IMG/VR virus record: IMGVR_UViG_2875722834_000006
Direction: 5' to 3' (one strand)
Source of the DNA: a virus
Lineage: Duplodnaviria > Heunggongvirae > Uroviricota > Caudoviricetes
Length of the DNA: 42,851 bases
Shown: piece after piece, positions 971 through 40,420 of the stretch
Numbering within the stretch: position 1 is the stretch's first letter
Layout: each line of letters starts with the position of its first letter
Translations under genes and position numbers: made by a program
The notes under the pieces: generated by a model
Seen by the model: only the letters and a program-made list of their open reading frames with translations
Database searches by the model: none
Told to the model about the DNA's origin: nothing

Positions 971-1531
971 TTATGTCTTACCACTACCTACCGGAAATTT
1001 TCGGTAGAGTGTTGAAACCCCTACGTCGTAAATTATTGCCACACGCTGGCGAGATTCCCCTGCTGAGATCAATCTCCCTGCCTGCGCCCATTGTTCATCC
1101 GTTAATTTGGGCCTGCGACCGCCGAACCGCCCTTTTGCTCGCGCAGCTGCTAAACCCGCCCGGGTGCGTTCAACAATGAGCTCTCTTTCCATTTCTGCCA
1201 AAGCCCCCATAACATGAAAGAAGAATCGGCCCATCGGCGTAGACGTGTCTATGCTGTCGGTCAGGCTGCGAAAATTAATGCCCCGCTCTCGCAGCTCCTC
1301 CACAAGAACGACAAGATGCCGCATGCTTCTACCGAGCCGATCGAGTTTCCAGACCACCAGCGTGTCTCCCTCCGACAAGATACGGAGTACCTTTTTGAGC
1401 CCCGGCCTCTCCGATGTCTTTCCGCTTATCTTATCTTCAAAAATCAGTTCACATTCTGCGCTATCGAGCGCATTTCTCTGTAATGCGGTGTTCTGGTCAT
1501 TTGTTGACACTCTCACGTAACCAATAAGCAT
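971..1531 (-). CDS. Serine recombinase, DNA invertase of Hin/Gin/Pin/Cin family
   Basis: 186-aa product starting MLIGYVRVSTNDQ with LVVWKLDRLGRS and C-terminal HTH (GVSTLYR), near-identical motif order to Hin; start moved to internal ATG at 1531. Confidence 0.85.
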   Translation of the reverse strand: MLIGYVRVSTNDQNTALQRNALDSAECELIFEDKISGKTSERPGLKKVLRILSEGDTLVVWKLDRLGRSMRHLVVLVEELRERGINFRSLTDSIDTSTPMGRFFFHVMGALAEMERELIVERTRAGLAAARAKGRFGGRRPKLTDEQWAQAGRLISAGESRQRVAIIYDVGVSTLYRKFPVGSGKT

Positions 1532-1600
1532 TGTTTTATCCCCTGCAAAAAGCAGAAAGCATGCCACTAGTGAGCAGAATGGTCATTATCAAAAACGTTC

Positions 1601-2017
1601 CTATATTGGCATCTCAGGCCAGACAGGGTTGGCTGAGTCAACCTTTGTCAATGCATAGCGATATTTCTGCCACGCCGTGAGTTTTGGCTTATCTGCATCA
1701 TCAATATAGTCACCATCAAAAGCATCCTTAAGTGGGTCAATAATATGTGTTGCATATGCGATAAGAGATGATTTTTTTGACACCGCATCTGCTTCAAGTT
1801 CTTCTGGCGTACGTGGTGGTATTTCACCCCATGTTGGCATGCCGTCATTGCCTGCGATGCGCACTAATCCATCAACGGTTCGATCCTGAGTGAACGCAGT
1901 AAATTGCTCAGTAGTTACGTCAATCAGGTCAGACAGATCCCAACCCGCATCTTCATAATTCCCCAGCTCAGCAGTACGGAAAAATGCATTGTTCTTAGCG
2001 CTGTATTGATATGTCAT
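1601..2017 (-). CDS. tfa: Tail fibre assembly protein (P2 gpG / Mu U-like chaperone)
   Basis: C-terminus VDSANPVWPEMPI matches the conserved tail-fibre-assembly C-terminal motif; start taken at MTYQYSAKNNAFF (ATG 2015-2017) directly after the fibre stop. Confidence 0.75.
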   Translation of the reverse strand: MTYQYSAKNNAFFRTAELGNYEDAGWDLSDLIDVTTEQFTAFTQDRTVDGLVRIAGNDGMPTWGEIPPRTPEELEADAVSKKSSLIAYATHIIDPLKDAFDGDYIDDADKPKLTAWQKYRYALTKVDSANPVWPEMPI

Positions 2018-2018
2018 C

Positions 2019-2936
2019 TTATTTTCCCCAGGCAATGTAATAAACATCTTCACTGAATGGTTGGATACCACCAGAGCCACCCCAGCACCGACCATCAAAA
2101 CCAAAACCCGCCTTATTAAGGTACGTGACATAGGGAGAGAACATCCAGGCTTGGCCAATCATTACGCCGAATGCAATGGCAGTACATTCGTTGGGGAACG
2201 GGGTATCAAATAATTTATCACCGGACAGAGAGACCTTGCCGGTTCTTACATGGCCTGTTGCTGCATTGCCCATCCCAAGATTATTTCTGGCCGTGGCTGC
2301 ATCGTTCGCACCAGTACCGCCTTGCTGAACCCCCAATGGTACGAATTTTGCGCCGTCAAAAAGCCCCCACTGATTATCTTCGCGTGCTGTAAAATATGCA
2401 GTTTTTTTATCGTCGCAATAAATTACCGTTTCACCTGCCCGCTGCTCAACTCTGCCAAGGCCAAGATTAGTCCTTGCTCCTGCTGCATTACCTGCACCTG
2501 TTCCACCCTGATTAATACCCAAGGGGATAAAACCTTTCGTAGTGTCATAAATGCCCCACTGACCATCAATCCTGATGGCAAGATAAGAGGAGTGATCGTC
2601 CCCGGAATAAATTCTCGTTTCGTTATTTAACTGCTCCACCCTGTCAATTCCAAGGTTTGTGAGAGCCGTAGAAATCGCCGCTGCACCATCTGATTTGATA
2701 TCGGCAAATGGGTTTGCACGGCTCAGTGTGAGTTTTTGAATGGCTTTTAAAACCTGAGTCATATCGTTAATGTCGAGCGCCAATCCTGCTGACTCTACGA
2801 TATGCGCTAACTCTTCCTGCATGGCATTAAACGCTGCTGCCCGCAGCCTCGTTGCGGCAATACCACCAGCAACACTTCCATCAGTATATTTGCCATCCTG
2901 CGTTGCAGTGGCTTCGACTTGCCCGATTCGGAGCAT
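2019..2936 (-). CDS. Tail fibre protein (305 aa)
   Basis: Two internal copies of the tail-fibre repeat (P)LG(I/V)xQGGTGA..AA.AR.NLG; GAGGA RBS upstream of ATG at 2936; followed by tfa. Confidence 0.8.
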   Translation of the reverse strand: MLRIGQVEATATQDGKYTDGSVAGGIAATRLRAAAFNAMQEELAHIVESAGLALDINDMTQVLKAIQKLTLSRANPFADIKSDGAAAISTALTNLGIDRVEQLNNETRIYSGDDHSSYLAIRIDGQWGIYDTTKGFIPLGINQGGTGAGNAAGARTNLGLGRVEQRAGETVIYCDDKKTAYFTAREDNQWGLFDGAKFVPLGVQQGGTGANDAATARNNLGMGNAATGHVRTGKVSLSGDKLFDTPFPNECTAIAFGVMIGQAWMFSPYVTYLNKAGFGFDGRCWGGSGGIQPFSEDVYYIAWGK

Positions 2937-24587: not shown

Positions 24588-25640
24588 TTATTCCCCTGTT
24601 AACGCCCTTATTTCCCCCACCGTCTGGCTAAACCTGTCCTTCTCGAGTTCAACGCCGATAGCCTGGCGGCCAAGTTCCAGCGCGATTTTCACGGTCGAAC
24701 CGGACCCCATAAAGAAATCAGCCACCACATCACCAGGCTTACTGCTGGCGTTGATGATCTGCCGCAACATGTCAGCGGGTTTTTCGCATGGGTGTTTACC
24801 TGGGTAAAACTGAACGGGTTTATGTGTCCAGACGTCGGTATAAGGAACGGATACGGAAACAGAGAAATGCCGCCGAAGCGATTTGTACTCTTCGAGCAGC
24901 TCTGAATACTTGCGATTTAACGAATGCCACATAGCCACCAGCTGGTGGTGTGGTGTTGCCAGTTCGCCGTTCTGGTGCTTTTCGATGGCTACCTGCGTGA
25001 AAAGGGACTGAAGCTTCCGGTAGTCTGATTCATTCGGTAATTGCCACTGGCTACCGCTGAACCAGTGAGACACCATGTTCTTCTTTCCAGTCGCATCGGC
25101 TATTTGTTTTGAGGTTATGCCAAGCGCTTCACGTGCATCCCGGAAATAAGAAATTAGGGGAGTCATTACATGCTGCTTCAGCTCGCTTCCCTTCTCAGCG
25201 TACCCGTCGCTCTTTGGTTTATACGGCCCCTGGTAATGCTCAGCGAACAGGATGCGCTCTGTTGCAGGGAAGTAAGAGCGCAGGCTCTCTTTATTACAGC
25301 CATTCCAGCGGCCCGACGGTTTAGCCCAGATGATGTGGTTCAGGACGTTGAACCGCTCACGCATCATGATCTCAATGTCTGCCGCCAGACGGTGACCTGA
25401 GAAAAGATAAAGACTGCCGGCAGGTTTAAGCACTCGCCAGAATTGTGCGAGGCACATATCAAGCCAGCGAAGATAATCCTCATCCCCTTTCCATTGATTG
25501 TCCCAGCCGTTGGGTTTCACTTTGAAGTACGGCGGATCCGTGACTATCAGGTCAATGAAGTTATCAGGGAGAGTTGCGATGTATTGCAGGCTATCAGCGT
25601 TGACTAACTCAACACTGTTTATATTTACAGTATTTTTCAT
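24588..25640 (-). CDS. DNA N6-adenine (or N4-cytosine) methyltransferase, beta class
   Basis: DPPY motif near N-terminus (VTDPPYF) and AdoMet motif FxGxG near C-terminus (DFFMGSGST). Confidence 0.8.
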   Translation of the reverse strand: MKNTVNINSVELVNADSLQYIATLPDNFIDLIVTDPPYFKVKPNGWDNQWKGDEDYLRWLDMCLAQFWRVLKPAGSLYLFSGHRLAADIEIMMRERFNVLNHIIWAKPSGRWNGCNKESLRSYFPATERILFAEHYQGPYKPKSDGYAEKGSELKQHVMTPLISYFRDAREALGITSKQIADATGKKNMVSHWFSGSQWQLPNESDYRKLQSLFTQVAIEKHQNGELATPHHQLVAMWHSLNRKYSELLEEYKSLRRHFSVSVSVPYTDVWTHKPVQFYPGKHPCEKPADMLRQIINASSKPGDVVADFFMGSGSTVKIALELGRQAIGVELEKDRFSQTVGEIRALTGE

Positions 25641-25858: not shown

Positions 25859-26758
25859 TTACGCGTTTCCAGGAGGGACATGCCAGACTCTTCGGCCATC
25901 CTCATGGTTCTCGATAATCTTGGCTGCTGTACTGCCACCAAAAGTGTGCATATAGCTATGATGTATCGTTAACACAATATCTTGTAATGCCTGATCTGCT
26001 TCCATCGGTATGATTTTCAAACCAATTTGGCTAGCTTTATCACTGTGAATATGACGTGCATGAGCAAAAGTTGAACTGTGGTTATTCAGGCTTGAACAAA
26101 TAGCTTCAGCCTTTTGCTGGGCATCTGGATCCCCATCAAACATACCAGTAATTAGCCATTCACTGACAATTGTTGTTGCCCATTGGATTGCCTTTTCACA
26201 CTCACCAATGAACGTCGGATTGAGTTTAGACAGTGTAAATTGCCAATACGCAGCAGTCGCAGGGTTTTTAATAATATCTTGCATAGCCTTCTGCGCTTCT
26301 TCAATCACGCCATGTGCTGGCACGCCACCGATTTGGGGATCGAAAGGACCGATATTTGATTGTTTCCCCATGATGATTTCTTTTGCACAACAAGCCAACA
26401 TAGTCCCTGCTGACATAGATATCATGGGGACAAAAGCACGGATATCGTTACCGAACTTAGCTCTCAAGTAATAACCTATCGATTCTAAGGCGGCGATATC
26501 CCCACCAGGTGTATGCAAAATGAGATCAAGCCCCTTCGTGGCATCGAGCCCATGAACCGCTGTCATGAATCCATTTTTATCATCATCAGACATAGTGCAT
26601 AAATGCGAGCTATTCTGAAGGAACCCCGAGTAGTACGCAATGACGTTACGTCCGGTCATCTGCGACATCTCTTTGATATATTTGCTTCTTACTGTGTCTA
26701 GGGGGCTTTTTTGGGCGAGGACTGCAACCTCGCCCATAACATGATTCCAATTAGGCAT
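25859..26758 (-). CDS. Clp-fold serine peptidase (SDH / S49-S14-like family), cargo gene
   Basis: LILHTPGGDIAA and MISMSAGTMLA motifs resemble ClpP/SppA fold; low GC; separate from head protease. Confidence 0.55.
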   Translation of the reverse strand: MPNWNHVMGEVAVLAQKSPLDTVRSKYIKEMSQMTGRNVIAYYSGFLQNSSHLCTMSDDDKNGFMTAVHGLDATKGLDLILHTPGGDIAALESIGYYLRAKFGNDIRAFVPMISMSAGTMLACCAKEIIMGKQSNIGPFDPQIGGVPAHGVIEEAQKAMQDIIKNPATAAYWQFTLSKLNPTFIGECEKAIQWATTIVSEWLITGMFDGDPDAQQKAEAICSSLNNHSSTFAHARHIHSDKASQIGLKIIPMEADQALQDIVLTIHHSYMHTFGGSTAAKIIENHEDGRRVWHVPPGNA

Positions 26759-29889: not shown

Positions 29890-31827
29890 TCAGGCGGCTG
29901 CACCCGCCTTTTGATTTGCACATAATTCAGGAAGATTTGCTTCTACCAGCGCACGAGCGAACGGCGGCGGTACTGCGTTACCACAGCGCGCTACCTGCTT
30001 GTCTTTGGCGTAACGATTGCCGCGATAGTCCTGATCGATAACGTAGCCGTCAGGGAAGCCCTGCGCCTTATAAAGCTCATGCGGTTGCAGCATGCGCATT
30101 CCGATATCGACGATCTGGTACTTAACCCCCTCGATCGTCACCAGCCATTCATCCTCGCTATCACCGCAGTAGGTTTCGAGGAATGTCCGGACCTCGCCAA
30201 CGTGCTGGCCACCAGCGGTAATCGTCGGCATAGGTGTATCCATGGTCTGACCGTCGCGGCAGGTTCCGCGCAGCTTCACCAGGTGCGACGCAACTACCGC
30301 GTGGTGATCAACAGTAGTGACTGAGTGGGCAGGCTCATCCATACCAACACCCGGCCCCGTGTAATTCCCACCATAGTGCTTCGCCAGGAACGCGCTCACC
30401 GTTGCAAACTTATTACCACCAGCAGTGACCGTGCCGAGCGGGTTATTCAGTTGAAGAACACGCGGTTCTTGCCCTGGGCGTTCGCCGTACCCCATCTGGA
30501 TCAGTGTTGGAGTTACCAGCTGCGACTTACCGCCACCACCTGCAGTAATCGTCGCACTCGGTTCGTCAGCCCTGTGCCCAACACTGGCTCCAAACTGGCG
30601 GGCGATGACCGGCGCAACCACGCACGCGCGGGACTGCTTGAGGATTGTATGAGCGGGTTTATCCAGCGGGCGCGGCTTTGCCTGGTACTCACTGCCGCCA
30701 TTGCCAGCCAGGAACGGTGTCAGGGCGGCCTCAACTACGCCAAGCGCATGCCCATTCCCGCCCGGGCGCGCCGACGTACCAGCGGTGACAGTTGGTACCG
30801 GCTCGGTCACTGGCTGCCCGGTGGCCCCGGTGCGGAATTTAGTAAGATGCGGTACCGCCAGTGCGTAGCCATGCTTTTTAGTGATGGTCTGCAATGGCTC
30901 TAACAACGATTGCCCGCGGAAACAGTCATAACCTCCTTTCGTCGTGGTGTGGTTACACTTCACGATGAAAGGTGATGCGCTTTCGATAACAAAGCGCTGG
31001 ATGCCGCGCGCGATACGTTTGAGCGTATTTTCCGCCAGCGGCTTTTTGCGGTCGAAGATGGACCGGGCCGGGATATTCCAGTCAATGCACTCCGCCGCGG
31101 TACGCCATGGCGCCAGCTTGCCGCTTTGTACTTCCAGTGATTTTGGATCCCCATGAGTCGCTTCAGGCCAATGAATCTTGCGGCCGTCACAGCGCATGAC
31201 CATGAAGAAACGCTTTCTGATCGTCGGCGCGCCGTAGTCACATGCGCGCAGCTCCCGATAATCAACCTCATAACCAAGCCCGGCGATCAGCTGTTGCGCC
31301 TGCTGGCCGTGCGGCTCAATGGCAAGGAATTCACAAACCTCAGCCAGCGCAGGGTGATTCGCCGCGATCCCCGTCGACAGCATGCCGACAAATGCCTCGA
31401 ATGTTTCGCCAGCACGCTCAGGATCTGGGCGTAATTCTTCATCCAGCAGCGGGCCCCATGTCTTAAACTCTTCGACGTTCTCCAGCATCATGACGCGGGG
31501 ACGTACTGCCAGCGCCCAGCGCAGGACAATCCACGCCAGCCCGCGAATCTCTTTCTTAACCGGCTTAGCGCCCTTCGCCTTGGAAAAGTGGCGGCAGTCA
31601 GGGCTAAACCAGGCCAGACCGACAGGTTTACCGCTGGTGGCTGCGCTTGGGTCAACGTCAAACACCGACTCGCAATAATGCAGCGTGTCAGGGTGATTCG
31701 TCTTATGCATCGCAATAGCGTTTTCGTCGTGGTTGATAGCGATATCCACGCTACGCCCGATCGCCAGTTCAATGCCGGTACTCGCGCCGCCGCCACCAGC
31801 AAAGTTATCAACGATAATTTCACGCAT
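29890..31827 (-). CDS. DNA (cytosine-5)-methyltransferase with extended, internally repeated variable region
   Basis: Motif I FAGGGG, PC motif (SPDCRHFS), ENV (MLENVEEF), motif VIII (YGAPTIRKRFFMV), motif X (GNAVPPP); four T(I/V)TAGG-containing modules between VIII and IX. Confidence 0.85.
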   Translation of the reverse strand: MREIIVDNFAGGGGASTGIELAIGRSVDIAINHDENAIAMHKTNHPDTLHYCESVFDVDPSAATSGKPVGLAWFSPDCRHFSKAKGAKPVKKEIRGLAWIVLRWALAVRPRVMMLENVEEFKTWGPLLDEELRPDPERAGETFEAFVGMLSTGIAANHPALAEVCEFLAIEPHGQQAQQLIAGLGYEVDYRELRACDYGAPTIRKRFFMVMRCDGRKIHWPEATHGDPKSLEVQSGKLAPWRTAAECIDWNIPARSIFDRKKPLAENTLKRIARGIQRFVIESASPFIVKCNHTTTKGGYDCFRGQSLLEPLQTITKKHGYALAVPHLTKFRTGATGQPVTEPVPTVTAGTSARPGGNGHALGVVEAALTPFLAGNGGSEYQAKPRPLDKPAHTILKQSRACVVAPVIARQFGASVGHRADEPSATITAGGGGKSQLVTPTLIQMGYGERPGQEPRVLQLNNPLGTVTAGGNKFATVSAFLAKHYGGNYTGPGVGMDEPAHSVTTVDHHAVVASHLVKLRGTCRDGQTMDTPMPTITAGGQHVGEVRTFLETYCGDSEDEWLVTIEGVKYQIVDIGMRMLQPHELYKAQGFPDGYVIDQDYRGNRYAKDKQVARCGNAVPPPFARALVEANLPELCANQKAGAAA

Positions 31828-33154
31828 TGACGGCCCCCTGCATGCTGTTGAAGAGACCACCAGCGGTCGTGATAATTTCACTCGTCGGCATACGTTCGAG
31901 CCACAGCTGGTTGATATTGGCTTTCAGCTTGTTCTGCTGCGAAACAGGTAGAGCGTCAGCCCCTTCAATCTGGTTAAACACCAGTCCAACCTCAAGAGGC
32001 CAAACGCGCGATTCGTTTAACGCCTTGTCCTTTGATTCCTGCGTCTCACGGACATGGGCGCGGATCCCCCGAATATTTGACCATTTGGCTTTATCCAGGC
32101 TTTCCATGGTCGCGATGAATTCACTGTGGTTAATGCCGTATTCTTTCGCAGACTCAACGGCAACCGTGCGTAACCGCTCTGACATGTCTTGTTTCACGTC
32201 ATCGCTATCAAAGGGCAATGTTTCCAGCCATGCATTAACACCCACCAGGATGCTCTCGCTGATCAGCTTTTTCGCTCTGTCGATCGTCAGCGGTGAAACA
32301 TTGGTAAATTCAGGGTTTTCCAGAGAGTCGGCAGCCCAGGTATGACCAAACTTTGACTCGCTGAAGGTGTACTCGTCTTTCTTGCCGAACGCCGCGACAA
32401 CACAGGCCCAAGCCTCTACACCGCTGGTTTCCAGAATGGCTTTTTGGGTTAATGGCAGTTCTGCCTCTGATTTCTCCGGCACTACCTCAGCGTCCAGCTC
32501 CGGCGCCGCATCAGTTTGCGTTCTTCCCACGGCAAATTGGGCCAGCGACATCGCAGCACGGCCTTTGGCCTCCAGGTCGGTGCGGTTGATGTAACTGAAA
32601 CGCTCACCCCGCCATGTTTTGTCGAAGACCACGATAGCGCCAGCAAAAAATGCGCTGGTGGGCTGCTGCTTTTCGTCTTTCGGCACGAACCATGTAGGAA
32701 GATCGAAACCAATTCGGCCACGGATGAATGTGACGTGATCTGCCTCTACCGGCCACCACGTTTCACTCGTCGCAGACTTAATGAGAAAAACGTACCGACC
32801 ACCCTTTTCTCGCATGGCCATAGCGTGGTTAATGATGTGGGTCATTCCGGTAACGGCCTGCTTGTCGTGGTACTGAGAGCGGCTGTAAGGCGGGTTGCCA
32901 AACCCGGCACCACCGAGTTCTGCCAGCCGCTCTGACCAATCCTGCATCAGGGCATTATCTTCAGCCGTGTACCATGCTGGGCACTTCGCGTTGCTGTCGT
33001 CGGCAAAAAGGTCCAACACCAGAGGGCCGAACATCGCATTGATCCCCCAAAACAACAGATCCGGAGTGCGCCATTGATCACCGACCTCTTTCAACTCGTG
33101 TGCTGGTTTTGAACGGAGTTCAGCCAGTGCACGGCAGTATTTATTTTCCATCAT
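31820..33154 (-). CDS. Phage-type DNA N6-adenine methyltransferase (Dam family) with about 250-aa C-terminal extension of unknown function
   Basis: N-terminal DQWRTPDLLF and NPPYS motifs characteristic of phage Dam family; long uncharacterised C-terminal half. Confidence 0.7.
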   Translation of the reverse strand: MMENKYCRALAELRSKPAHELKEVGDQWRTPDLLFWGINAMFGPLVLDLFADDSNAKCPAWYTAEDNALMQDWSERLAELGGAGFGNPPYSRSQYHDKQAVTGMTHIINHAMAMREKGGRYVFLIKSATSETWWPVEADHVTFIRGRIGFDLPTWFVPKDEKQQPTSAFFAGAIVVFDKTWRGERFSYINRTDLEAKGRAAMSLAQFAVGRTQTDAAPELDAEVVPEKSEAELPLTQKAILETSGVEAWACVVAAFGKKDEYTFSESKFGHTWAADSLENPEFTNVSPLTIDRAKKLISESILVGVNAWLETLPFDSDDVKQDMSERLRTVAVESAKEYGINHSEFIATMESLDKAKWSNIRGIRAHVRETQESKDKALNESRVWPLEVGLVFNQIEGADALPVSQQNKLKANINQLWLERMPTSEIITTAGGLFNSMQGAVNA

Positions 33155-34005
33155 CCTCTGAACCCCTCTGGAATCTTGCTATCAACCGGACCGAACTTCA
33201 TCGGGTCATGTTTCTTTTCACCCCAGCTGTCACGCGGTGGCCGCCCCTTCTTGTCCCAGCGGATCCCGCTTTGCAGATAACCTTCAAATTTTTTCGGACC
33301 GAAGAGCGTTTCAGGACGCATGTACTGGTACTGCACGTCATTGCCGTTCCAGTGCTCATGCTTAAGGTCGATCACCAGCTGTAAGTCGCTAACGGTGTAA
33401 CCTTCACGCAGACGAGCACGGATGTTTTCCAGAGAAGTTTTTGATTTTTGGTATCGTGAGCCACTAACCAGGTTCAGATGATTCAGAACCAGGATGGCGT
33501 TATCGGTGATCATCACTTCAGGGTCTGGTTGCGGCGCAACCGGACAAGAAGGTTTTTTAACTGATGGATCAGTAGTTGTATTTACTGACGGATCCCCCCC
33601 AGATTCTGACGGGTGAAAACCGCCTTTTTCATCGTTTTTTGATGCCTCAGATTTTGACGCGTCGGTTTTTGAGGCATCAGATTTTGATGCGTCAGAATCT
33701 GACAGGTGAGAAAAGGCAGCAGCCTGCAATTTAGCAACATTGAGCTGGTAAACGTTCGATGCATTTCGGTTGCCTTTACGGCGCTGCTGGCGGGTTAACC
33801 AACCATCTTTTTCCAGCTGAGATATGGCTGTACGAACCGTGCTCTCACCAGCACCAATCTGGCGCGCGATGGTAGCGATGGAAGGCCAGCTAACCCCTTC
33901 ATCACTGCTGAAGTCTGCCAGACGCGCCATGATGGCAACGCTGGATAGCTTCATGCCAGAAGCGGCACAAGCATCCCAAACGTAACCCGTTAATTTAGTG
34001 CTCAT
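33151..34005 (-). CDS. Replication initiator-like protein (N-terminal winged HTH, central SDASK repeats, conserved phage C-terminal domain)
   Basis: HTH segment GVSWPSIATIARQIGAGESTVRTAISQLEKDGWL; DNA-level iteron-like repeats inside gene; position after cro/CII-like genes. Confidence 0.65.
   Translation of the reverse strand: MSTKLTGYVWDACAASGMKLSSVAIMARLADFSSDEGVSWPSIATIARQIGAGESTVRTAISQLEKDGWLTRQQRRKGNRNASNVYQLNVAKLQAAAFSHLSDSDASKSDASKTDASKSEASKNDEKGGFHPSESGGDPSVNTTTDPSVKKPSCPVAPQPDPEVMITDNAILVLNHLNLVSGSRYQKSKTSLENIRARLREGYTVSDLQLVIDLKHEHWNGNDVQYQYMRPETLFGPKKFEGYLQSGIRWDKKGRPPRDSWGEKKHDPMKFGPVDSKIPEGFRG
33640..33710. repeat. Iteron-like repeats (GCATCAGATTTTGA(C/T)GCGTC and inverted partner) inside initiator gene; candidate ori
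   Basis: Repeated TCAGATTTTGA units at about 33647 and 33678 with flanking inverted TTTTTGA(T/G)GC(C/A)TCA. Confidence 0.45.
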
Positions 34006-34014
34006 GGTCGTCCT

Positions 34015-34341
34015 TTAACTCTGTAAACTTGCGCTTGAATTGTTCGAGCGGGCTGAAACATTCGTGGTCATATCCATCCCGCAGGTAGATAACTCGTTGA
34101 GTCTCTGGCTCCCACCTGATAACCCGAACGGGGATCCCTCTGTGGTCTTTGAACCTTCGGTTAACTTCGCGCTTAAGCGTTTCGCCTTCCTGTAGTAAAC
34201 CCCCACAATTGCGACCGCCCGACTGTGGTTACATGGCACCCAGCGGTTTGCTATTCTGCGTTCATACCGAAACAACGGAGCGCCCGGTACCGGGATCATC
34301 CTGAGTTGCGGCAAACGGTTAAAAGCCGTTAAACTGGTCAT
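34015..34341 (-). CDS. Questionable hypothetical ORF (108 aa)
   Basis: Open frame filling gap between CII-like and initiator genes; atypical composition, no RBS evident. Confidence 0.2.
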   Translation of the reverse strand: MTSLTAFNRLPQLRMIPVPGAPLFRYERRIANRWVPCNHSRAVAIVGVYYRKAKRLSAKLTEGSKTTEGSPFGLSGGSQRLNELSTCGMDMTTNVSARSNNSSASLQS

Positions 34342-34346
34342 GCGGA

Positions 34347-34952
34347 TTACTTCTCCATACAAGATTTGTCTGCCACGACGCCCGGAGCTGCACACTCGCG
34401 GGCGTCACCTTTTTCCGGCGCACAAAACACACGGAAAAGCAGCGTCAAATGTTCCTGCCACTTAGCCATCACCTGATAGCTGTTCTCTTCAATCTGGGCG
34501 CGTTCCTGAGCATCAATAACGCCGTCAGCGGTAGCTTTGCGAACGTATTGCGAATGCCTGCCGATCCACTCCACTGACTCCATAAGACGCTGGTTGATGT
34601 CACCGTTCTCTATTTCTTCAACGTCAGCCAATGGCACGAAAACACCGTTCGAGTGACGTGCAATAGCGTTCGCTATGTGGTTTGAACCACCAGCACGTTG
34701 AAGCACCATCGCCCAACCGAGCTGGAAGATCTGATCGCCATCGGTACGCAGCCGGTTAAACAGCGCGTTCTCGGTCACACCCAACCACTCAGCAGCTTCT
34801 GAATATCCGCCAGGCAGCTCGGTGATCGTTTTTTTGATTGCGGCCACCAGCCAGGCTGGCTGCTTATCTACTTTCCATTCAGGTTCTATACCCACGGCTA
34901 GGTCCTCCCTTCTGTGGTTATTTCTGATCGCTTGGCGATGTATTCTTGCCAT
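34347..34952 (-). CDS. CII-like / phage regulatory protein (HTH-containing)
   Basis: Predicted HTH (YSEAAEWLGVTENALFNRL); position directly downstream of cro; start ambiguous (GTG 34979 or ATG 34952). Confidence 0.4.
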   Translation of the reverse strand: MARIHRQAIRNNHRREDLAVGIEPEWKVDKQPAWLVAAIKKTITELPGGYSEAAEWLGVTENALFNRLRTDGDQIFQLGWAMVLQRAGGSNHIANAIARHSNGVFVPLADVEEIENGDINQRLMESVEWIGRHSQYVRKATADGVIDAQERAQIEENSYQVMAKWQEHLTLLFRVFCAPEKGDARECAAPGVVADKSCMEK

Positions 34953-35133: not shown

Positions 35134-35232
35134 GAAGCCTCCTTAGCTAAGTTTGGTTAGATATTAATAACCAATCTAACTTTGGTCAATAAAAACTAAG
35201 ATTACTTAGTCTTTTTTAAACTTGGTGCTTTC
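35134..35232. promoter_or_regulatory. Right operator/promoter region: PR (-35 TTGACC, -10 TAATAT on minus strand) with three CTAAG-containing operator repeats
   Basis: Minus-strand TTGACC-17bp-TAATAT upstream of cro RBS; repeats CTAAGTTTGGTTAGAT (35147-35162), ACCAATCTAACTTTGGT (35171-35187), CTAAGATTACTTAG (35196-35209). Confidence 0.65.
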
Positions 35233-35859
35233 ATGGAAACGGTTGGTCAGCGCATTAAAGCCCTACGTAGGGTTACAAGAACCTCTCAAAAAGAACTGGG
35301 TAAGTTCTGCGGGGTTAGTGACGTAGCGGTGGGTTATTGGGAAAAGGATGTGAATATCCCAAACGGTGAATCGCTGGTTAAGCTGGCGAAATTCTTTAAC
35401 ACATCAATAGATTACATTCTTTACGGCACTGAATTTGAAGGCACCCTCATAACTAAAATGAGGCGTGTCCCGGTGATTTCATGGGTTCAAGCTGGGCAGT
35501 TCACGGAATGTAAAGCCGCTGATTTGTTCAGTGATGTCGATAAATGGGTTGAAACATCACTTCGCATTGGGGATAACTCGTTCGCTTTAGAGGTCAAAGG
35601 GGATTCAATGACCAATCCAAATGGCCTCCCAACAATCCCTGAAGGGGCAACCGTTATTGTTGATCCAGATGCCGAACCCCTTCATGGCAAGATTGTGGTT
35701 GCGCGTCTTGATGGCACTAATGAAGCGACTGTTAAAAAACTTGTCATTGATGGCCCACAAAAATTTTTAGTGCCACTAAATCCTCGCTACCCCAACATCC
35801 CGATCAATGGTAACTGCCTCATTATTGGCGTTGTTAAAGGCGTTCAGTACGAACTCTAA
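35233..35859 (+). CDS. cI: CI-like repressor (N-terminal HTH, C-terminal LexA/S24 peptidase-like autocleavage domain)
   Basis: HTH (TSQKELGKFCGVSDVAVGYWE) and S24 signature (EVKGDSMTNP...K) with divergent cro. Confidence 0.85.
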   Translation: METVGQRIKALRRVTRTSQKELGKFCGVSDVAVGYWEKDVNIPNGESLVKLAKFFNTSIDYILYGTEFEGTLITKMRRVPVISWVQAGQFTECKAADLFSDVDKWVETSLRIGDNSFALEVKGDSMTNPNGLPTIPEGATVIVDPDAEPLHGKIVVARLDGTNEATVKKLVIDGPQKFLVPLNPRYPNIPINGNCLIIGVVKGVQYEL

Positions 35860-35945: not shown

Positions 35946-36486
35946 TTCTGTCGACACCAAACCACCGCGCCTGATGTGGTTAAAAGCAGGCCAAAGCAAT
36001 AAGAAGTGATCCCTGTTCTGGCTGCTCACTTTCCCCTTGAGGGTGACAGCCAGCTTTTTAAGGGCACAACAGGCGAGAGCATTGCTGATTATCGGACTGC
36101 GTGAGACGCGACGCGGTAAAGCAGGTAAACAGTGCTCTCACCGTTGTGGTAATGCGGCTCTGCGCACGTGACGAGGCCAACAAGTTTTTATTTCAACTTT
36201 TGAAATGAATACGTTTCTTGTGGTGTAGCGTCGCCGGTTCTGGCCGGTCCGGCAGGTGGAGGCACCACCGCCACAACAACATCATTGCTGTGTGTAGTCT
36301 TTGCCCATCACATCGGTGGGCACCTTTTTTACACAAGAGACAAGGGCATCACCGGGCGACGGGCTCATTCCCCAATCCACCCGGGCAAGAGGATAGCGAT
36401 TGCAGTCGCCGACAAATGCAGGTGCCCTTCTCTGTTGTGTATGGAGAAAGTTCGGCGGTGGCAGCCGCCATAACGAGGGTAAAACC

Positions 36487-36858
36487 ATGAGTAATGACCG
36501 CATGACCGTAGTGCCCGACTTTTTGGGCGAGCTGGATGCCGGTGTGTTCATGAACAAAATCGCGGCAGCACTTAACACCACCGCGCTTGGCGTTCTGAAC
36601 AACGGCAACAAAGGCAAAGTAGTCCTCACCTTTGATTTTGAGCGTATGGGTAATTCCGTTGAAGAGAAGCGCGTCAAGATCAAGCACAAGCTGAACTACA
36701 GCACCCCAACCCCGCGCGGTAAAGCCTCCGAAGAGGACACAACCGAAACCCCTATGTGGGTTAACAAAGGCGGGAAGCTAACCATCCTCCAGGAGGATCA
36801 GGGGCAACTGTTCGGGATCACCGGCGCGGTGGACGGAAAGCTTAAAGCGGCTCAGTGA
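36487..36858 (+). CDS. Hypothetical early protein (123 aa), YfdP-like position
   Basis: ATG at 36487 with GAGGG RBS; first recognisable ORF of leftward early operon. Confidence 0.5.
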   Translation: MSNDRMTVVPDFLGELDAGVFMNKIAAALNTTALGVLNNGNKGKVVLTFDFERMGNSVEEKRVKIKHKLNYSTPTPRGKASEEDTTETPMWVNKGGKLTILQEDQGQLFGITGAVDGKLKAAQ

Positions 36859-38574: not shown

Positions 38575-38825
38575 CCGTATTTGAATATCTCCAGGGCCAC
38601 CCGAACGCCACCAGCGGTGAAATCGCAAGGGCGATGGGTAAAAAGACGCCAGCCGTAGCCAGCGCACTATCTCAGCTTTATGCAACAGGGAGAATTGTTA
38701 AGTCTGGCGCACGCGGTGGGATACCGACATACCGCGTCAATGATCTGCCGTTTGGATGCAGCAATAACTTAACGCTGATATTTAACCAGCTTCTGCGAAA
38801 CGTCCGCAAAGGAGCAGCCCAATGA
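38571..38825 (+). CDS. Small winged-helix DNA-binding protein
   Basis: 84-aa ORF with HTH-like TSGEIARAMGKKTPAVASALSQL. Confidence 0.5.
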   Translation: MTVFEYLQGHPNATSGEIARAMGKKTPAVASALSQLYATGRIVKSGARGGIPTYRVNDLPFGCSNNLTLIFNQLLRNVRKGAAQ

Positions 38826-39139
38826 GCAAATTTACGGCATTACCAGTAGAACGCGACCAATACGGCTACTGGACTCACCCCGTCTATGAGCAATTTTGCG
38901 ATGGTCGTGAATTTATCTCACCTGATGAGTTCAACGCCTGGCTGGATAAAAACGGCCTCGAATGGACGGTAGTTTACCGGGATGAAGAAGACATCGATCC
39001 TGAAGTTGATGGTTACGATATTTCAGCCTGGCAGCCAGAATCGCCAGCCGGTGAAGGTTGGTTTGTCGGTTCAATTCACAACGCCGAAGATGGCGCGGTA
39101 TGCATCTGGTTACGTAACGTTGAAGGCGGTGCAGCATGA
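38822..39139 (+). CDS. Hypothetical protein (105 aa)
   Basis: ORF overlapping upstream stop (ATGA), acidic/aromatic composition. Confidence 0.45.
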   Translation: MSKFTALPVERDQYGYWTHPVYEQFCDGREFISPDEFNAWLDKNGLEWTVVYRDEEDIDPEVDGYDISAWQPESPAGEGWFVGSIHNAEDGAVCIWLRNVEGGAA

Positions 39140-39293
39140 CAGTCCATACACTGAAGCAATGCCGCCCGGACCAAGAAGAAGCGCATGACTGGCGCTGACT
39201 GGCTGACAGCGATTGAGATGTACAAACCAACTGTGCGCATCGTGGAAGTTAATGTGCCACGCGCCGCTGGCATTCGCATCAAAGGAGAGTGAT

Positions 39294-39809
39294 ATGGCGT
39301 TAACACACCGCGAACTCTGTCAGATTGCGTACAAGTTCCTTAAGCGCAACGGGTTCAAGGTTTGTTTTCATGACCGCTTTATAGCTGTAACCAGTACCGG
39401 AGAACAGCCAGATGCTATGGGATTCAGAAATTCAGCATCATGCCTGATAGAGGCGAAGTGTTCTCGTGCTGACTTGTTGGCAGATAGAAAAAAGCGTTTC
39501 CGTAAAAATCCCTCACTTGGCATGGGCGACTGGCGATTCTTTATTAGTGAGCCGGGAATTATTTCAGTTGAGGATTTACCTCCCGGCTGGGGATTACTTC
39601 ACGTTGTTAACGGAAGAGTACGGAAAGTACATGGGTGGCCCAAGGGTAATTGCTGTTGGGGTAATCCTGACGATAAGCCATTTACTGGAAATAAGCAGGT
39701 TGAATGCGATTACATGTTATCTGCATTAAGGCGCATGGAGTTGAGAGGGCACCTTAATGAAATATATGACGGTGTAATTGTTAATAAGAAAGAAGGAAAC
39801 GCGGCATGA
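39294..39809 (+). CDS. PD-(D/E)xK-type nuclease-fold protein (MmcB-like)
   Basis: QPDAMGF...LIEAKCS matches PD-x(n)-E-x-K arrangement; AAGGAG RBS before ATG 39294. Confidence 0.5.
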   Translation: MALTHRELCQIAYKFLKRNGFKVCFHDRFIAVTSTGEQPDAMGFRNSASCLIEAKCSRADLLADRKKRFRKNPSLGMGDWRFFISEPGIISVEDLPPGWGLLHVVNGRVRKVHGWPKGNCCWGNPDDKPFTGNKQVECDYMLSALRRMELRGHLNEIYDGVIVNKKEGNAA

Positions 39810-40420
39810 CCACTATTACCAAAGAACGTATTGAATTGTTCATTAAAAATCCGCTTGAAAACGGACTTACCCGTGGCGAACAAATGGAACTGGCACGGAT
39901 TGCACTGGCATCACTGGAAGCGGAGCCTGTAAGCCAAGCTTACAACTTGCCACAAACGCACTTTGAACAGGTTGCTGACCTTTACGAAATGCAATTTGAG
40001 GATGGACGCACTTGTACCTTTCACACTGATGCGCAAAAGGCTGTGCAATGGCTTCAGGCGTGCGACGGAAACAGGGTTCAGGAATACGTTAAGCTGGAAC
40101 GATTGCAGAACGCACTGTCTGGCAACTCTCCGGTAGCTCCGGATGGTTTGTTAGGTTGTGGTGAAAATTGCTGGTCATGTGGCAAGTATTTTACATACGA
40201 ACAGCACTCTGAATGCGACGGATACTGCCCACACTGTAACTCTCCTGTTGATCTTGATGATGAAGAAGACCAGCCATCGAAAGTAGTGCCAACTAATCCT
40301 ACGGAAGAGATGATTTCTAACGCATGGAGGGAGGCAATCGGCAAGTGCGATCATGAAACCATTAAGCGCATATACGCGACAATGCTCGCAGCAGCACCAC
40401 AGCAGGAGGTGAAGCTGTGA
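39806..40420 (+). CDS. Hypothetical protein with C-terminal Cys-rich zinc-ribbon-like motif
   Basis: CGENCWSCG...CDGYCPHC cluster; overlapping start/stop with neighbours. Confidence 0.5.
   Translation: MTTITKERIELFIKNPLENGLTRGEQMELARIALASLEAEPVSQAYNLPQTHFEQVADLYEMQFEDGRTCTFHTDAQKAVQWLQACDGNRVQEYVKLERLQNALSGNSPVAPDGLLGCGENCWSCGKYFTYEQHSECDGYCPHCNSPVDLDDEEDQPSKVVPTNPTEEMISNAWREAIGKCDHETIKRIYATMLAAAPQQEVKL

Follow-up and report, generated by a model that had tools for sequence, protein, structure and literature searches.

The 42,851-base window analysed here, the whole of IMG/VR record IMGVR_UViG_2875722834_000006, corresponds to a complete temperate phage genome, that of an enterobacterial myovirus with a lambdoid early region. 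Within the early region a 284-codon gene on the minus strand (33151..34005) encodes a putative replication initiator, built from a winged helix, a disordered linker, a Phg_2220_C helical domain and a tail. The DNA that encodes the linker contains, in coding direction, five iterons, a sixth site, an AT-rich stretch and a palindrome. The initial annotation of this locus had placed iteron-like repeats and inverted partners at about 33640..33710, coinciding with SDASK repeats of the protein, had pointed out that the next gene encodes a methyltransferase rather than a helicase loader, and had proposed that the initiator may recruit the host DnaB/DnaC directly through its C-terminal domain.

Both folded domains of the initiator are recognised by Pfam, HTH_36 (PF13730) at 37.6 bits against a cut-off of 25 for residues 23–70 and Phg_2220_C (PF09524) at 81.5 bits against a cut-off of 27 for residues 173–245, and the protein matches the NCBIfam model TIGR02220 (70.3 bits; cut-off 66.65). 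Its PHROGs labels are ‘replication initiation O-like’, ‘primosomal protein’ and ‘DnaD-like helicase loader’. The AlphaFold2 (AF2) model has helices and a beta-wing at residues 3–102, with a predicted local distance difference test (pLDDT) score of about 72–87, and this N-terminal winged helix-turn-helix (wHTH) domain (residues 1–102; 33700..34005, minus strand) finds its best Foldseek matches among wHTH regulators of the MarR/ArsR/SmtB type; a profile search of the PDB with the initiator returned wHTH regulators only. It is presumed to be the iteron-binding domain. The linker (residues 103–155, pLDDT <50) connects it to a C-terminal domain of six helices, also modelled with confidence, the Phg_2220_C domain (residues 162–253; 33247..33522, minus strand), presumed to act as the replisome-organising, partner-binding part. 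The basic C-terminal tail (residues 254–284; 33154..33246, minus strand) has low pLDDT, and the conserved W250, GRP..R, W261 and terminal FRG form near-invariant columns of the alignment; the tail may serve as a docking site. The family is large (2,452 clusters in the database with an E-value of 1e-5 or less, E. coli Nissle 1917 being represented among them), and its members abound in prophages of Escherichia, Enterobacter, Klebsiella, Salmonella and Citrobacter. Their usual annotation is no more than ‘conserved phage C-terminal domain protein’ or ‘GntR family regulator’.

The five tandem 15-bp iterons (33631..33706, minus strand) share the 11-bp core TCAAAATCTGA. A repeat search and Tandem Repeats Finder (TRF) both place four to five head-to-tail copies of a 15-nt unit at 33632–33706, with TRF scores of 78 and 96 and 87% matching of the 30-nt double unit. 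On the coding strand the unit is nnn-TCA-AAA-TCT-GAy, which is translated into LSDSD/ASKSD/ASKTD/ASKSE/ASKND (residues 101–125). The sixth, isolated palindromic iteron, CCGTCAGAATCTGG (33599-33612, minus strand), lies 20 nt beyond the array, so that all iterons (33599–33706) fall in codons 101–135, between the wHTH fold of residues 3–102 and the helical domain of residues 162–253. The repeats are thus where the initial annotation had put them, on the SDASK motif, and the inverted partners it described are genuine since each unit is near-palindromic, TCAGA-N-TCTGA; the basic period is 15 nt and not about 20 nt. With one mismatch or fewer, TCARAWTCTGA occurs at six sites in the 42.8 kb, four of them within 33599–33702, and the number of strand-hits in the whole window (12, as against 3.25 in shuffles) was reached in none of 100 shuffles. 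Strong and weaker iterons alternate in 33631–33706, TCAAAATCTGA with TCAAAAACCGA or TCAAAAAACGA, and it is this alternation that gives the best TRF score to a 30-nt super-period; in several relatives all units are strong. Some units resemble an integration host factor site (ATCAA...), but this candidate was dismissed, as there is no conservation at the base that precedes TCA.

Directly beside the iterons is an AT-rich stretch (33546..33598), presumed to be the DNA-unwinding element. Its segment 33546–33585 is the least stable 40-bp duplex in 33000–34300 (GC content 0.30, free energy -45.7) and lies beyond the 99th percentile of the window. The stretch contains two GATC-led 13-mer-like repeats, GATCCGTCAGTAA and GATCCATCAGTTA, the GATC sites of which (33591–33594 and 33567–33570) are both kept in 54 of 54 distinct relatives, whereas the other three GATC sites of the gene are kept in only 15–31 of the 54. 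The density of GATC in the whole window is mildly above that of shuffled sequences (207 versus 172), and since this general excess is only mild, it is just the two sites at the putative origin that stand out. On its other side the AT-rich stretch is bordered by a GC-rich palindrome (33523..33545), GTCTGGTTGCG and CGCAACCGGAC, with 11-nt arms that are 91% complementary and 1 nt apart, situated at the boundary between the linker and the C-terminal domain.

Comparison among relatives indicates that this DNA is under selection in its own right. The relatives comprised 80 related loci from IMG/VR with 76–100% protein identity, from which 358 units of 72 distinct genes were used for unit statistics and 54 distinct full-length genes for the codon alignment. 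All 80 carry the array, in three to seven units, and the sixth iteron lies within the stretch of the gene that varies least among the 54. Positions 4–14 of the unit (TCAAAATCTGA) are almost invariant across the 358 units, positions 15 and 1–3 vary, and the residue encoded by the spacer codon varies among A, P, T, V, L and Q. Serine is encoded by TCA in 350/358 units, compared with 25% of Ser codons outside the array; the fourfold-degenerate third position of this codon is A in 352/358, and lysine is encoded by AAA in 256/257, compared with 63% outside. A pattern of 11 fixed and 4 free positions has no period of three, so that it is explained by no reading frame. Synonymous variation is suppressed over codons of about 96–155 (33541..33720), a segment that coincides with the disordered linker and extends beyond the repeats: synonymous diversity in the codon alignment is 0.03–0.11 there versus 0.25–0.45 in both folded domains, and non-synonymous diversity stays at 0.06–0.25. 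That the protein is unconstrained just where the DNA is constrained is what would be expected of a cis-acting element written into the linker.

The more distant homologues show, in addition, that the repeats vary together with the protein. YeP3 has both the recognition helix and the iteron core of the window. Aeromonas phage 51 (32% identity) has the repeats CCCCGCAGATTCTGC and GCAGAAGTTGC, the chub-gut contig L087 three copies of GGGTATAGCAGGAGCTGACAC and L089 four copies of GGTGACAACTTGTCA; in Klebsiella phage Kp4882-3, whose initiator has an N-terminal domain with no HTH_36 match, there are six GGTCAAAATGA units at a spacing of 23 nt. All these repeats are located at about 35–50% of the gene, and in each case an AT-rich stretch with GATC in it comes next. 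After this stretch a palindrome is also found in L087, in Kp4882-3 and in L088 (where the repeats are weaker), and in L087 and L088 it differs from that of the window but occupies the same place. The repeats co-vary with the DNA-binding domain of the initiator, divergent or unrelated N-terminal domains being found with different repeats. The palindrome TGTCCGGTTGCGCNGCAACCAGAC of the window (33523–33545) is identical in Kp4882-3 (L090:2974-2997), the initiator of which has a different N-terminal domain, different iterons and a C-terminal domain of only 38% identity; the shared sequence may be an origin element, a recombination junction for the swapping of specificity modules, or both.

Taken together, the selection at the DNA level, the co-variation with the protein and the lambda-like order of the elements give strong support to the proposal of the initial annotation that iterons of an origin lie within the initiator gene. 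With high confidence, as far as sequence can tell, 33523–33720 is a phage replication origin of the theta type embedded in this gene; the location indicated earlier stands, and the constrained DNA, about 33523–33720, is larger than the repeats that had been marked.

Two readings would do without an origin at this place. The array could be mere low-complexity SDASK linker, prone to slippage, with the origin elsewhere: the linker is predicted to be disordered, tandem repeats arise by slippage and the copy number does change in steps of 15 nt. Such a linker does not agree, however, with a Ser third position fixed as A next to varying first and second positions of the spacer codon, with synonymous diversity that is 3- to 10-fold below that of the flanks and remains low beyond the repeats, or with unrelated repeats at the same place in distant homologues, and we consider it very improbable. 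We attach similarly little credence to a synonymous constraint arising from an overlapping gene, a structured RNA or a recombinational sweep at a module junction. There are alternative-frame open reading frames (ORFs) at 33576..33734 (plus) and 33582..33764 (minus), but neither these nor any other frame would produce an alternation of 11 conserved with 4 variable positions; the single strand folds well (z = -4.75), but this score follows directly from the palindromic units, and no Rfam family is matched anywhere in the window. The identity of the palindrome with that of a phage that has an unrelated N-terminal domain is as would be seen at a recombination junction, yet a sweep would also erase the non-synonymous variation, which persists.

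The arrangement resembles the lambda origin in many respects. In both, the origin is located inside the initiator gene between the segments for DNA binding and for partner binding (the iterons at 39–48% of O in lambda and at 35–47% of the gene here), and consists of dyad-symmetric iterons with an A-tract centre, an AT-rich stretch and a palindrome; in both, cro and a cII-type gene precede it in the transcript from pR, and a 4-nt overlap couples the initiator gene to the following one, as with O and P. The two differ in that P is absent here and a Dam methyltransferase is in its slot, so that the locus is not of the IL type, in that the N-terminal domain is HTH_36 and not Phage_rep_O, in the iterons, which here are abutting 15-bp units and in lambda 18-bp units at a spacing of 20–24 bp with other sequences, and in the two invariant GATC sites of the AT-rich stretch. 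To the right of its AT-rich stretch the lambda origin contains GTCAGAGAATTCTGGC (L085:858-900, lambda 39157-39199), which resembles the iteron core GTCAGAATCTGG; this resemblance is probably a coincidence.

A second comparison is with the iteron plasmids (RepA of pSC101, pi of R6K, TrfA of RK2, RepE of F and RepA of P1), which likewise combine one winged-helix initiator, tandem iterons and an AT-rich element, and which, encoding neither a loader nor a helicase, obtain the host helicase through contact between Rep and DnaB (PMC4980987). Their origins are intergenic and carry DnaA boxes, and DnaA and DnaC are needed in E. coli, whereas the origin described here is inside the gene and has no DnaA boxes. 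Their Rep proteins have two winged-helix domains; the AF2 model of the initiator contains a single wHTH domain together with the all-helical Phg_2220_C domain. The latter is what the initiator has in common with the replisome organisers, or DnaD-like initiators, of Firmicutes phages such as SPP1 and 80alpha, where it is also C-terminal. Tblastn yields a match (E 3e-6) with a gene of SPP1, the annotation of which is ‘DnaD-like helicase loader’; Phg_2220_C is matched in hundreds of annotated phage initiators or ‘replisome organisers’, including staphylococcal, streptococcal and Bacillus ones. In architecture the origin is of the lambda type, and the module is initiator-only, as in iteron plasmids. 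An ‘initiator-solo’ class of phage modules, with one initiator gene, an internal origin and neither loader nor helicase, is reportedly part of the classification of Weigel and Seitz (2006), of which papers citing them confirm the types IL, IH and ILH only.

The gene next to the initiator, sitting where lambda has P, encodes a Dam-family N6-adenine DNA methyltransferase of 444 residues (31820..33154, minus strand; PF05869, E 1.7e-42, and TIGR01712) and overlaps the initiator stop codon by 4 nt (ATGA). Searches of all early ORFs with Pfam, PHROGs and NCBIfam, and of 20 of the larger late-region ORFs with PHROGs, revealed no helicase, DnaC/IstB-type ATPase, lambda P or G39P-type protein, and the loader-type AAA+ families PF01695 and PF00308 have no match in the early ORFs. 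The initial annotation had named a loader-like ATPase with a Walker A motif among the early genes as a finding that would speak against its proposal. Of the six strings resembling this motif in the six frames, which lie in a DUF2303 protein, in structural genes and in non-coding frames, none is plausible; the same scan detects the loader of a Vibrio phage, which served as a positive control. Phmmer searches with lambda P, three DUF6475 proteins and the YeP3 ORF gave no match in any frame, and the P/G39P-type motif ‘FxPxPxEF’ is absent from all six.

Absence of a loader gene, as noted initially for this genome, extends to its relatives. In about 80 relatives (sizes being recorded for all downstream genes and scans run on representative size classes) the initiator is followed by a Dam (PF05869), a D12-class Dam (PF02086), a Dam-Dcm fusion, a PerC-like, a LexA-like or an Ant gene, a Dam-type methyltransferase of PF05869 or PF02086 filling the slot of P in most of them; RusA or DUF968 are also among the downstream genes of the family. 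No loader is found downstream of the initiator in these relatives, in the prophage of E. coli Nissle 1917, in YeP3 or in Kp4882-3, and the absence is a trait of the family and not a peculiarity of one genome. In loci L069 and L071 the initiator is followed directly by Ant, DUF968 and Q. Apart from the initiator, no gene of the flanking 4 kb on each side occurs in every relative: among the 61 with full flanks, the N-terminal part of Dam is retained in 55, Ant in 53 and the N-terminal part of DUF968 in 45.

Elsewhere the same C-terminal domain does have a partner. In Vibrio phage BT-1011 (L091:1924-3309) a DnaC/IstB-like loader is encoded directly upstream of a protein with DUF6291 and Phg_2220_C, and in the Aeromonas-type phages a DUF6475 protein (PF20081) of 193–194 residues always follows the Phg_2220_C initiator, whatever the N-terminal domain of the latter (L084:4305-4889, L087:4726-5307 and L088:4777-5358). 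The DUF6475 protein contains SGQFFPKPADLIKQ, which recalls RPFLPSPGQFVAW of lambda P, and it is a candidate P/G39P-like helicase loader; we found no literature on DUF6475. Phg_2220_C is thus paired with different partners by lineage, a DnaC-like loader, DUF6475 or none.

As the phage has neither a helicase nor a loader gene, the helicase of the host must be borrowed. The following sequence of events is consistent with the observations. Transcription from the pR-like promoter would produce the initiator and read through the origin; the N-terminal winged-helix domain would bind the six TCAAAATCTGA sites, and the resulting nucleoprotein complex would strain and open the adjoining AT-rich stretch. 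The Phg_2220_C domain, perhaps with the basic tail, may then bring in the host DnaB, most likely as DnaB-DnaC, so that the initiator would by itself perform the adaptor function, which in lambda is divided between O and P. We infer the binding, the melting and, above all, the direct contact with DnaB-DnaC, which is the most likely route of recruitment. For this explanation as a whole, that is an in-gene origin together with recruitment of host DnaB, likely DnaB-DnaC, by the C-terminal domain, our estimate is a probability of about one half. An organising role of this domain is supported by its presence in initiators beside both the DnaC-like loader of BT-1011 and DUF6475, and by the binding of P by lambda O, which has the same domain according to HHpred (PMC5509034). 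Initiators that contact DnaB directly are known in pi of R6K, RepA of pSC101 and TrfA of RK2 (PMC4980987). The nearest deposited phages, Escherichia phages LLS, Flotzy and Eeyore, are deposited as complete genomes, which suggests that the module is sufficient with host factors. We found no experimental study of this enterobacterial initiator family and nothing on replication in the literature on yfdO/KplE1, and the papers on ‘Eru’ of Stx phages list HTH_36 proteins in replication regions with no mechanism offered.

Several observations weigh against this explanation. There are no DnaA boxes within 33000–34400, whether sought as TTATCCACA with one mismatch or fewer or as TTWTNCACA, and iteron plasmids that rely on the host DnaB-DnaC in E. 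coli normally use them. The kinship with lambda O is also not reproduced by our own searches: the initiator has no match to Phage_rep_O (PF04492) at E up to 0.01, as compared with 123 bits for lambda O, Pfam finds nothing but Phage_rep_O in lambda O, and hhalign of a 20-sequence profile, which is shallow, against lambda O was not significant. For this reason the homology is taken only from the published HHpred analysis of Brezellec et al., in which lambda O consists of HTH_36 and Phg_2220_C (PMC5509034). Moreover, phage loaders may escape recognition at the sequence level (Tominaga et al. 2024, PMC11087808), and the early ORFs at 34015..34341, 36400..36858, 38822..39139, 39213..39809 and 39806..40420 are without assignment; the same applies to methyltransferase residues 200–444 and to the DUF968 protein in its N-terminal half.

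It is therefore conceivable, if doubtful, that the origin holds and the helicase is loaded by a cryptic phage protein unlike P, DnaC and G39P, for which the small ORF upstream of the initiator, the methyltransferase in its unassigned C-terminal region, the DUF968 protein in its N-terminal half or an ORF of the left operon would be candidates. The unassigned early ORFs leave room for it, the gene in the slot of P is translationally coupled to the initiator, DUF6475 is a constant companion of the initiator in the Aeromonas-type phages, and the phage-derived loaders VdhL1/2, which sit beside O-like genes, can escape all sequence searches (PMC11087808). Nevertheless, the initiator is the one gene of this neighbourhood (4 kb to each side) that every relative retains, in some relatives Q is preceded by nothing but the initiator, Ant and DUF968, and neither lambda P nor DUF6475 nor the P-like motif was found in any frame. 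A rather improbable route, again with the origin in place, is loading of the helicase by the restart-type machinery of the host, through PriA-PriB-DnaT-DnaC on an R-loop or D-loop made by transcription from pR, or through DnaA, with no contact between the initiator and DnaB-DnaC. The origin is indeed transcribed from pR, PHROGs calls the C-terminal domain DnaD-like, and DnaD acts in DnaA- and PriA-dependent loading in Firmicutes; on the other hand, nothing in the locus is specific to PriA or DnaT, there are no DnaA boxes near the origin, and lambda and SPP1, characterised relatives with the same architecture, use direct contacts between initiator, loader and helicase. In favour of the same route, a domesticated O-like protein carries the C-terminal motif of DnaT (PMC5509034).

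The direct recruitment of DnaB-DnaC can be given a more specific form, for which the two invariant GATC sites and the occurrence of a Dam-type methyltransferase, of two families, in the slot of P provide the starting point; this combination is the least expected feature of the locus. In this form, a lambda-type origin that lacks P would have its Phg_2220_C domain and tail dock on DnaB-DnaC with no DnaA boxes, and the Dam-type methyltransferase would control firing through the two GATC sites, for instance in that the origin would stay fully methylated and not be occupied by SeqA, by analogy with oriC and the P1 oriR; we regard this as a tentative proposal and, on balance, unlikely. The 13-mers of oriC and the heptamers of the P1 oriR have GATC in their unwinding elements, and the P1 oriR needs Dam methylation. 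The likeness lies in the GATC-led repeats of an AT-rich stretch beside initiator sites and in a Dam-type methyltransferase, which here is phage-encoded and adjacent. A point against the link is that Dam genes are common in lambdoid nin regions for other reasons.

The remainder of the genome provides the context of the module. In the early region cI (35233..35859, plus strand) faces cro, and the predicted pR-like sigma-70 promoter (35161..35189, minus strand) is in the cI-cro intergenic region, of 30% GC; it reads cro, a CP76-type cII-like gene, a small ORF and the initiator, so that the origin is transcribed. The minus-strand order continues with the Dam methyltransferase, a Dcm-like methyltransferase, Ant, DUF968 and Q. 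The small ORF (34015..34341, minus strand; 108 residues) ends 10 nt before the initiator start, belongs to PHROG 1170, of unknown function, and has no Pfam or NCBIfam match; it is present in 54 of the 61 relatives. A role as an obligatory partner is unconvincing, as it is missing in seven of them, and the name DUF4222 given to it in RefSeq records of relatives was rejected since there is no match to PF13973 even at E up to 1. The left operon has yfdP/yfdQ/yfdR-type genes, an exonuclease and an integrase, and an unassigned 97-residue ORF in the place of the annotated excisionase of related phages.

The late region (about 1–22,000, minus strand) encodes small and large terminase, portal, protease, major head protein, tail sheath, tape measure, baseplate, tail fibres and a DNA invertase, and is followed by lysis genes, the three DNA methyltransferases and the Q antiterminator. 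The invertase gene, of the Gin/Cin type (971–1567, minus strand), adjoins the tail-fibre genes (1601–2936, minus strand), an arrangement that points to an invertible segment for host range, as in Mu and P1. A ClpP-like serine protease gene of the SDH type (25859–26758, minus strand) has an unusual position between Q and the lysis genes. Three DNA methyltransferases are encoded in this one 43-kb genome, an N6_N4 type with a helix-turn-helix (24588–25640), a Dcm-like protein of 663 residues (29890–31881) and Dam (31820–33154). The C-terminal 245 residues of the last (200–444) belong to no Pfam or NCBIfam family, its middle part (residues 200–380) is found in 28 of the 61 relatives and its last 65 residues in 51, and the same gene is annotated ‘PAPS reductase’ in some phage records, after PHROG 33262.

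A mapped origin with a clear 11-bp site makes this module a compact and testable replicon, and allows origins to be annotated in many prophages. LLS, the host of which is on record as E. coli K12, is a genetically tractable phage and would offer a simple system in which to study how a helicase is captured with no adaptor of the phage's own. Direct capture, if true, would stand between the paradigms of lambda O-P and of Rep-DnaB in iteron plasmids, and a hidden loader, if true, would further widen the range of viral helicase loaders, the diversity of which has been recognised recently; either outcome would extend known principles and break none.

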